DNA of 64,000 nt from Eledone cirrhosa (Eukaryota), in NCBI GenBank assembly GCA_964016885.1, contig OZ024741.1, positions 170,004,001 through 170,068,000 on the forward strand, written 5' to 3'. The position numbers and the translations under genes were made by a program. This document shows positions 32,071-34,102 of the stretch, in pieces. How positions within the stretch are numbered: position 1 is the first letter of the stretch; each line of letters begins with the position of its first letter. A model generated the notes under the pieces. That model saw nothing but the letters and a program-made list of their open reading frames with translations, was not told where the DNA came from and did not search any database.

Positions 32071-33350
32071 AATATGGTTTTATAAATATAGTTTCCATTT
32101 GTTAATATATCGTATTTTTACTCCAATAATTTGTTGAGTGGTTTATATCAGTTATAAAAATATTTGCTTGTTGTATCCCAACGATTTAAATAGAACTTCT
32201 ACATATATATATATATATATATGTGCGTGTGTGTGTGTGTGTATATGATAACTAAAAACAATAGAGGCAAAACTTAAAAGTCGGAAAACATGGAGAGATA
32301 CGATGGCAGAGAATCGAACCTTGCTTCTCTCGTAAGCCTGCTGAGTGTATTAAATCATTATGTCTTTTACTGTCTCCAGGGTTACTTAACCCGATGACTA
32401 CATTTTCAAATATCAAATTTCTCACCACTTCGTAAAACAAACGGATGTTTATATCTATGTTATATGTAAGTCTGTACCACCCACCACACACACATATTCA
32501 CACCCAAGCTCATAAAGATATACACATATATGTACATAGCTATTATAGAATGATTGATTGTTTTCTCTATCGTAGATTTGTATTTAAGTTTCATAGTATA
32601 TAGTTACATATTTACCTTATGCTGTGGTAGTAGTTGAGACGATGATTATGATGATGGTGGTGATCGTGATGCTGGTGGTAGCGGTGGTGGTTTTAGTGAT
32701 GATGTGGTATGGACAGGCGGCGGTTTCGTTAGAGCTCATATTAGTGGTAGTATTGTTAGTGGTAGTTGAGAAGTTGCTTGTGCTGTGTGTAAATATGAAT
32801 ATCCCTCTGCATCCACCCTCCCTACCACATATCTGATGAAGAACAGATGCTATAAATTTCTATTACGGTGTTCTATACTTGCATGTTCATACTCACACCC
32901 ACACGCACATACTATAATGCATATTCAAGAAAAAAAATATATCGAGAATAGTCATATATATATTTGTTATATGAAAGTATGAAAGATAATTCGTAAAAGG
33001 CGTATGTCTCTCTTTCTCTATATCTCTTTGTATATATATATGTCCCACTTTTTGATGTCTGGCAAATAAAAAGAAAGTTATATATAATATTAAGGATACT
33101 ATTTATGGCTATGTATATACTAAAACTTTTTATAGTTATGTATATTTTAAACCCTAAACAGTGAAGGTCAGTAATTTATTACTACCTTATTACCAGTAAG
33201 ATAAATAGCTCAATGTAATGACATCAGTTGTTCTACAGAGCAGTTATATAGAATTCTATATATATATATAGAATTCTATATATCTATATATATATATAAT
33301 TATAATGAAATGACAGGAGGCTGGAGGTGTAAATCCTTGAAAGGTTTATT

Positions 33351-33408
33351 ATACTATGATCATTTCAATGACCGGGTTCCGTATGAATCCGGTGATATCA
33401 TCAGGTAT
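33351..33408 (-). ncRNA. Hammerhead ribozyme motif (minus arm)
   Basis: Exact reverse complement of 33788-33845. Confidence 0.78.
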
Positions 33409-33787
33409 TCGAAATATAATACGTGAATATAATAGATAAAATCATAGGGCTGAAAATCGAGGACCCGAGGGCGACCGCTATCTTGCACCCTCTACCTTAG
33501 CCGGTCGCCCTCGAGTGACGTGGCTAAAGCTCACAGTGTGCTACTACCGGTCAGATAAAGGAAAACAGAAAGGGATAGGAACATAAGTTACAAGACAAAA
33601 GAAAGATTTTATGTTCCCATCCCTTTCTGTTTTCCTTTATCTGACCGGTAGTAGCACACTGTGAGCTTTAGCCACGTCACTCGAGGGCGACCGGCTAAGG
33701 TAGAGGGTGCAAGATAGCGGTCGCCCTCGGGTCCTCGATTTTCAGCCCCATGGATTTTATCTATTACATTCACGTATTATATTTCGA

Positions 33788-33845
33788 ATACCTGATGATA
33801 TCACCGGATTCATACGGAACCCGGTCATTGAAATGATCATAGTAT
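33788..33845 (+). ncRNA. Hammerhead ribozyme motif (plus arm)
   Basis: atac-CTGATGA-tatc accgg attcatacggaac ccggt catt-GAAA-tgatca(palindrome)-TA-gtat, then AATAAA. Confidence 0.8.
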
Positions 33846-34102
33846 AATAAACCTTTCAAGGATTTACACAAATCCAGCCTCCTGTCATTTCATTATAATA
33901 TTTAACTCTGTAATAGCACCACCAACTACAAAAACAAAGACGGTTGAACTGCTTTACGTTGAGTACTCTCTATATTATTACAATACGGTTGACCATACGG
34001 AATAGACCAGCTCTATACAGTGGTGAACCTCAAACCTGAATATATATATATATATGTCTTTTCTTGTGAAAATGGGTATAGCTTTCATTATGTAAAATCT
34101 TC

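Follow-up and report, generated by a model that had tools for sequence, protein, structure and literature searches.

A TA-bounded palindrome with two outward-facing hammerhead motifs, the probable footprint of a Penelope-like element

What left a palindrome of about 600 bases, with a hammerhead motif facing outward on each arm, between two runs of TA repeats, and does it mark a recently active family? We define "the window" as the whole 64-kb stretch of DNA that was analysed, a repeat-rich, animal-like DNA with LINE-type ORFs and remnants of Penelope-like elements (PLEs), and we refer to the palindrome as D. A local alignment of positions 33299-33586 with 33609-33899 is identical in 284 of 291 columns, the differences being four substitutions and three gap columns. 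These values bear out the original prediction of near-identical arms that carry identical outward hammerheads and AATAAA.

The left, short arm (33299-33586, sense on the minus strand) and the right, long arm (33609-33899, sense on the plus strand) are separated by a 22-nt spacer (33587-33608), and from their mutual alignment each reads as a 5'-truncated pLTR-like copy. The palindrome stops at 33899. The following 140 nt (33900-34039, plus strand; AC-rich near 33915-33940) extend the right arm only and form a "tail" that the short arm lacks; we infer that the whole of it belongs to the element. Both outer ends adjoin TA repeats. A (TA)n run at 33285-33298, recognized from the sequence, the junction and the list of such runs, abuts the short arm; the outer end of the tail meets an (AT)n run (34040-34055). 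The two runs are presumably the left and right halves of the target. Folding the entire 742 nt gives -569 kcal/mol (z = -49). Each arm also holds the GC-rich internal stem that had been predicted, at 33679-33732 on the plus strand and in mirror image at 33463-33516 on the minus strand. The right copy, which belongs to no Rfam family, consists of 15 bp, one bulge and 3 bp and folds at -34.7 kcal/mol (z = -3.15), with one of 200 shuffles equally good.

One difference between the arms is complex (33326 versus 33870-33872): the right arm has a perfect 6-bp hairpin and the left a short direct repeat, as local template switching would give. Just to the right of D, 53 bp from the interior of a dispersed repeat (34054-34106) stand alone between two TA runs; they match 35430-35482 at 98% identity, and the repeat occurs also near 8505.

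The motif on both arms, CTGATGA-31 nt-GAAA-TGATCA-TA, follows the order of a type I hammerhead (core CUGANGA ... GAAA ... UH), and the two cores, at +33792 and -33404, are 388 bp apart. In the right copy (33788-33845, plus strand) helix I has 4 bp, the core spans 33792-33798, GAAA spans 33830-33833, helix III is palindromic, and the cut is predicted to fall after A33841, the same position as in the original prediction. In the left copy (33351-33408, minus strand) the core starts at 33404 and the predicted cut follows 33355. Helix II has U.U, not G-C, at its base, a point on which the prediction was silent, and a C.C mismatch further along.

A strict hammerhead descriptor finds six motifs in the 64-kb window and none in each of 30 shuffles. 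Five of the six sit in palindromes, namely D and two neighbours designated C and G; the sixth, at 20343, belongs to a hammerhead of the D/C structural class (20331-20410, plus strand) that lies outside any palindrome. A helix II domain of 30-31 nt in which the fourth pair is a C.C mismatch is common to D, both copies in C, and the motif at 20343. When these four sequences, which represent three families, are laid on the hammerhead fold, 93% of cells pair and nine of the 15 pairs have changed on both sides; none of 500 shuffles scores as high, and slid controls reach 28-48%. Among the four, D alone has U.U, unpaired, at the base of helix II, and the others have A-U or G-U. As judged from sequence comparison, this covariation shows that the hammerhead fold has been kept across families; it does not imply that D is active, because the set is small and was selected by motif. 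A covariance model built from the same four sequences returned only its five source-family loci, with the next best candidate at E = 0.8.

Standard models do not recognize these motifs. Rfam gives no hammerhead match at E<=1 in the window, nor at E<=10 in 33700-34040, and its only matches over D are to generic miRNA hairpin models below their cut-offs, which we rejected. A second, looser motif scan that required a closed helix II base found two loci only, D not among them. Rfam thus misses a hammerhead class with a long helix II, a C.C mismatch and a variable base pair, so that such motifs are probably under-counted.

As a monomer, the D hammerhead is predicted to cut poorly. The active monomer fold has -4.0 kcal/mol against -16.0 kcal/mol for the minimum, a gap of 12 kcal/mol. 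Helix III is absent from the monomer ensemble and costs 3.7 kcal/mol in the monomer, and the intermolecular duplex of its 8-nt palindrome has -7.2 kcal/mol, which suits dimers. Because the active monomer fold lies far above the minimum and helix III pairs between molecules, the models predict that cleavage would need either a dimer joined through the palindromic helix III or a PLE protein. Help from dimers or proteins has been published for PLE hammerheads (PMC4209133, PMC11167929; reviewed in PMC6765202). We also considered, and rejected, the reading that U.U at the base of helix II marks a dead ribozyme. It is a natural variant of Hydra-clade PLEs (13 of 23 rows shown in the PMC8557442 supplement have it), and axolotl HHR_Amex2, which has the same base, is able to cleave, with 22% cut within 1 h for the monomer and more for the dimer (PMC7229834).

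The hammerheads of D resemble the min-HHRs in the pLTRs of metazoan PLEs, as PMC4209133 describes them, in being of type I with a helix I of 4-5 bp, a long helix II, a palindromic helix III and an AU-rich 3' flank. Their arrangement also recalls the dual min-HHRs of Schistosoma mansoni, which lie on opposite strands 100-700 bp apart (PMC4209133). Unlike the min-HHRs, D lacks the bulged base after A9 and the G10.1-C11.1 pair of the consensus given in that paper, having U.U there; its 31-nt helix II domain, with C.C at pair 4 common to the three families, and the failure to find a parent ORF are further differences. On sequence grounds, the D hammerhead is not filed under the min-HHR consensus.

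AATAAA recurs immediately downstream of these hammerheads. In D it starts 5 nt past the predicted cut on both arms (33846-33851, plus strand, and its mirror at 33345-33350, minus strand). The distance is the same in C and in a motif at 5646, and is 13 nt at 20343; AATAAA is absent in G. The tally of four in five families compares with a background of 0.022. By our own reading of the rows in fig. S3 of PMC4209133, AATAAA lies just past the cut in 9 of 56; the authors remark only on an AU-rich flank there. On these counts AATAAA is a recurrent feature of PLE hammerheads, and in D it is a candidate poly(A) signal only. In C it overlaps an extended helix I. We found no paper that treats an AATAAA after the hammerhead as a PLE poly(A) signal, and the passages of PMC2377424 that we covered contain no such term.

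The motif at 5646 (5646-5728, plus strand) has one core mismatch and a (TA)n run 44 nt downstream, and the preceding 93 bp have a second copy immediately to the left of D, at 33079-33171. Decayed hammerhead-like cores that fail the strict descriptor were noted by eye at 34681-34715 (plus strand) and at about 5365-5390 (minus strand).

Palindrome D does not stand alone. Six palindromes, A, B, C, D, F and G, lie between 31.4 and 34.6 kb, so that D has five neighbours within 3.3 kb. Two of these, A (31321-31519, palindrome 31396-31519) and F (34167-34350, palindrome 34221-34350), have a left tail, (TA)n at both ends, and no hammerhead that we could find. B (31685-31792) is likewise a palindrome without a hammerhead. 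C (31809-32202) consists of a palindrome at 31809-32112 with two outward hammerheads of D's structural class and a tail to 32202, and G (34369-34550, minus strand) of a short palindrome at 34435-34550 with a single hammerhead (core -34500) in the spacer and a tail at 34369-34434; both have (TA)n at each end. The six have no detectable sequence likeness to one another, their spacers measure 2-76 nt, and the identity of their arms ranges from 86% to 98%. These unrelated palindromes and further short repeats, all flanked by (TA)n, fill the 3.3 kb from 31321 to 34594, a cluster that probably represents one TA tract hit repeatedly.

A common build unites the six: no more than 1 bp separates the short arm from a (TA)n run, and the long arm is followed by an extension and then by the next run. 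In all six, one arm end lies 0-1 bp from a run of (TA)>=4, where the chance per interval is 0.23 locally and 0.09 across the window. By our own arithmetic with the local value, six of six would occur by chance with a probability of about 1.6e-4, a figure to be read in the knowledge that the region was picked after it had been seen. Among the close inverted repeats of the window with E<1e-5, eight of nine have an end no more than 3 bp away from such a TA run, as compared with none of the five weaker ones. The three hammerhead-bearing palindromes D, C and G are also alike in polarity: both ends lie downstream of the cut, the short end at 58, 51 and 36 nt and the long end at 198, 141 and 102 nt, respectively. 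Two further inverted-repeat inserts, at 5750-6528 and 61482-61899, likewise have arms that end at TA runs; their interiors are longer, at 575 and 264 bp.

A search for relatives of D yielded no parent. BLASTN at two sensitivities found no other copy in the 64-kb window. A 26-nt pattern from D has no exact match in bacterial and archaeal genomes, and D has no match among plasmids and phages, results of little weight since these sets hold no animal genomes. Four motifs from D have no match in the PLE consensus supplement of PMC8557442, the line-wrapped text of which could hide one. Neither D nor its tail is likely to code: no ORF inside exceeds 57 codons, the frames end within 20-57 codons, and 161 PLE-related proteins give no significant match (best tblastn E 0.007 against D, which is chance level), so we rejected a coding role.

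No PLE ORF is attached to D, and no parent ORF was found in the window, which does hold remnants of PLE ORFs at 18707-19775, 30001-30596 and 63480-63688. The first (minus strand) is a frameshifted RT-linker-endonuclease remnant, cut at both ends; its identity to unnamed proteins is about 40-50%, and in one of these proteins DKT replaces DKG. The second (plus strand) is a GIY-YIG remnant (Pfam E = 1.4e-5) with a CxxxxCxxC linker, and its long relatives mostly have ADKG; motifs from the literature, used here in place of a tree, point to the Neptune type. The hammerhead at 20343 is the motif of D's class nearest to a PLE ORF, and we considered whether it ties the class to the remnant at 18707-19775. 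This was rejected: no matching repeat occurs on the 3' side of the ORF, and the motif does not link the class to it because it lies on the opposite strand, about 570 bp away, with another repeat between. Related repeats (70%) at 20962-21281 and 29743-30044 are accompanied by decayed hammerhead-like motifs near 20940-20981 and 29727-29767, and each ends at a simple-repeat run about 220 nt downstream. At the edge of the window, 62424-64000 holds inverted repeats of about 300 bp (91%) around a minus-strand PLE ORF remnant; this structure runs past the window end and has no adjoining TA run.

Judging by its anatomy, D is probably the footprint of a PLE insertion in (TA)n, an ORF-less inverted pair of pLTRs. 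The original prediction of a PLE-type inverted hammerhead pair is therefore supported by anatomy and by the literature; no parent ORF or second copy turned up in the window. D has the head-to-head inverted copies with outward 3' ends and the AT-rich or (TA)n target of truncated PLEs. In endonuclease-bearing PLEs the pLTR is known to stand head to head with a second copy that is inverted and 5'-truncated, with a one-sided tail (PMC3846280, PMC8557442, PMC8969392), and an insertion bias for (TA)n is described in the Neptune, Naiad and Hydra clades (PMC8557442). D is likely a published kind of structure, ordinary transposon debris, and an inert remnant at its locus.

Published elements match D in part. 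Penelope of Drosophila virilis and Pen2a of Adineta vaga (PMC3846280, PMC2377424, and the legend to fig. 2 of PMC8557442) share with it the head-to-head copies, one shorter arm and an extension at one end. Unlike them, D has no ORF between the repeats and no target duplication visible within (TA)n, and its tail measures 140 nt on one end as compared with 30-40 nt, although with a single copy its true end is not fixed. The U.U that D has at the base of helix II is frequent among Hydra-clade hammerheads, and one consensus among the clades of PMC8557442 has a hammerhead on both strands; in most Hydra-clade rows of that source helix II is short and the insert in helix III is odd in length, whereas D has a 6-nt palindrome. 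Naiads, unlike D, have no canonical hammerheads (PMC8557442), and D, having no ORF, receives no clade placement. PAc, a Poseidon element of Anolis (PMC11167929), resembles D in having two ends downstream of the hammerhead, an AC-rich stretch nearby and an AT-rich target. The PAc ORF starts inside the hammerhead, whereas the frames of D at that place stop within the 20-57 codons given above and match no PLE protein tested.

D is filed neither as an autonomous PLE nor as a retrozyme nor as a MITE. An autonomous EN+ PLE carries RT and a GIY-YIG ORF within the element, and D carries neither. The terminal inverted repeats and target duplication of a MITE or fold-back transposon were not found either, since the arm flanks differ and the tail is one-sided. 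Non-LTR retrozymes are non-coding and have type I hammerheads, as D does, and HHR_Amex2 is one with the same U.U base (PMC7229834; bioRxiv 10.64898/2026.07.22.740005). Retrozymes consist of direct repeats in tandem, every unit with its own hammerhead, and give circular RNAs (PMC7229834), whereas D is an inverted pair in which we sought tandem direct repeats and found none. These same facts bear on the idea that D belongs to a non-autonomous element that moves as a whole palindrome, either a fold-back retrozyme or a MITE with a captured hammerhead. TA is a common target of DNA transposons and D has no ORF, both of which suit such an element, and non-autonomous hammerhead elements derived from pLTRs have been described (bioRxiv 10.64898/2026.07.22.740005; PMC7229834). 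With direct repeats lacking, no TA duplication formed by the arm flanks, a tail on one side only and no second copy in the window, we consider this quite improbable.

How might a PLE have made such a structure? The origin of the inverted repeats and tails of PLEs is called undefined in PMC8557442. The Anolis PAc protein offers a lead: it is predicted to act as a dimer, the purified protein cuts and extends both target strands, and it begins reverse transcription at two sites inside the RNA, which delimit the tail (PMC11167929). Applied to D, a PLE RT/GIY-YIG dimer acting in trans would cut both strands of a TA run, and the cut ends would prime two cDNAs of the hammerhead-bearing 3' end (pLTR). 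A near start site, 58 nt past the ribozyme cut, would give the short arm, and a far site, 198 nt past it, the long arm with its tail. Both cDNAs would halt after a few hundred bases and be joined mid-way, leaving the 3' ends outward and TA on both sides. If D is of PLE origin, we judge the chances of this two-primer route to be about even. Two observations count against it, the absence of a TA overlap at the D junction and the length of the tail, 140 nt and not 30-40.

"Twin priming" is a term from L1. A broader proposal is that twin priming makes the ORF-less PLE palindromes in general, with two RNA templates and each arm an independent cDNA, and that the 3.3-kb cluster is a TA tract repeatedly hit in this way. 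We hold this tentatively and think it rather doubtful. We found no paper that proposes twin priming for PLE palindromes, most subscription papers lying outside the literature covered.

The arms of palindrome B speak to the choice between two priming events and one. A dispersed, non-palindromic copy of the B family at 14919-14983 provides a standard, against which the 10-nt spacer of B continues the short arm and its 11-nt tail continues the long arm. Each arm therefore holds family sequence that is absent from the other, and neither is a plain copy of the other. The principal competing account keeps the PLE origin and has the second arm made by self-priming, or fold-back, on the first cDNA or on antisense RNA, with the tail arising from resolution by the endonuclease. 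Self-priming on an antisense template has been proposed for head-to-head palindromes (PMC3846280), a tail has been ascribed to EN-mediated resolution (PMC8557442), and spacers as short as those of the six palindromes suit a hairpin intermediate. Simple fold-back of a single cDNA is disfavoured, because it cannot yield the two arms of B with their exclusive sequences. The spacer of D leans the same way: it is pyrimidine-rich (16 of 22) only in the reading direction of the short arm, which itself has 31 pyrimidines among its first 40 nt (binomial p = 0.026). Because of this likeness to the arm start the spacer is probably part of the short-arm copy, a composition argument that is suggestive only. 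Taken together, B and the spacer of D argue against fold-back of one cDNA; antisense self-priming (PMC3846280) would also fit B. The arm-exclusive comparison is possible for B only, which has no hammerhead and whose own PLE origin is presumed, and in G the spacer, with the hammerhead inside it, continues the long arm. We regard the self-priming account, in its several forms, as a distinct possibility that we nonetheless lean against.

Junctions with the TA runs raise a different alternative, that one truncated copy was inserted and was later inverted and duplicated by DNA repair or by template switching of a replication fork at unstable (TA)n. Alternating TA runs are fragile, cruciform-forming sites. 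Six of the seven short-arm junctions compared overlap the TA run by 1-4 nt, and the family of B has a non-palindromic copy. The seventh junction, that of D, has no in-phase microhomology to (TA)n. Further, the duplicated part in D, C and G ends a similar short distance past the cut and in the same direction, the short arm of B has family sequence missing from the long arm, and among the close inverted repeats listed for the window no host sequence or SINE is inverted in this manner at a TA run. We therefore find inverted duplication improbable and retain an origin within PLE retrotransposition as the preferred reading.

Short, ORF-less palindromes of this kind let rival mechanisms for PLE inverted repeats be told apart from genome sequence. 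The telling features are whether the spacer belongs to one arm or the other, whether the arms end at fixed positions, and whether new copies have identical arms. If twin priming is true, arm-exclusive sequence such as that of B would be a signature of the mechanism that can be read from a genome.

The original prediction held that transcripts of D would form dsRNA that hides the ribozyme, and that silencing or editing might follow. In silico, the first part stands for read-through RNA: transcripts of either strand would form about 284 stacked bp, in which all 58 ribozyme bases pair with the other arm, as would be true of every palindrome built this way. The geometry does not imply self-silencing, because RNAs started at the centre and running outward are near-identical sense copies and not complements (duplex -107 kcal/mol versus -578 kcal/mol for true complements). 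Such centre-started RNAs could, according to the folding models, dimerise through helix III. In a genome rich in palindromes of this build, those in transcribed regions would be a source of long dsRNA.

Might D then be a regulatory hairpin, retained because its dsRNA serves silencing or A-to-I editing? Its read-through RNA would stack in runs of 27, 102, 14, 2, 130 and 9 bp, and three of the four arm substitutions (33429, 33446 and 33577) are A/G with a 5' T, an ADAR-like bias. No such substitution bias appears in the five other palindromes, and we rejected it as a sign of editing, taking it as probably due to chance. No host exon was recognized among ORFs of at least 100 aa, and D shares its build with neighbours from unrelated families, as a by-product would. 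We consider a retained regulatory role very improbable, and return to D as the debris of a PLE insertion.

The remaining claim, that D is young and the best candidate for a recently active family, did not hold. The arms of D differ at seven of 291 columns and those of C at four of 117, values that do not differ (Fisher p = 0.52), and the window has the single copy of D. The arms of D are closer to each other than those of A (p = 0.0005), and other repeat pairs in the window reach 97-98% identity. Conversion can homogenise arms, and the identity of the D arms dates one event or the last conversion, not the activity of a family. The arm differences also bear on the idea that D is an artefact of assembly or amplification, a fold-back chimera. 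Inverted PLE structures do trouble assemblies (PMC8557442). The arms of D nonetheless differ at seven columns, arm identity varies across the six palindromes over the range given above, and the ends are tied to ribozyme polarity and to TA runs, so that an artefact is extremely improbable.

Better candidates than D for recent activity are the LINE-type ORFs of the window, which are long and partly intact (816, 713, 607, 552 and 545 aa) and occur in several related copies at 36460-42055, 42167-47157 and 51140-61205. A dispersed family of about 190 bp, a SINE-like size, has copies up to 97% identical at 6974-7161, 10852-10947, 15798-16403, 19910-20094 and 27511-27698.
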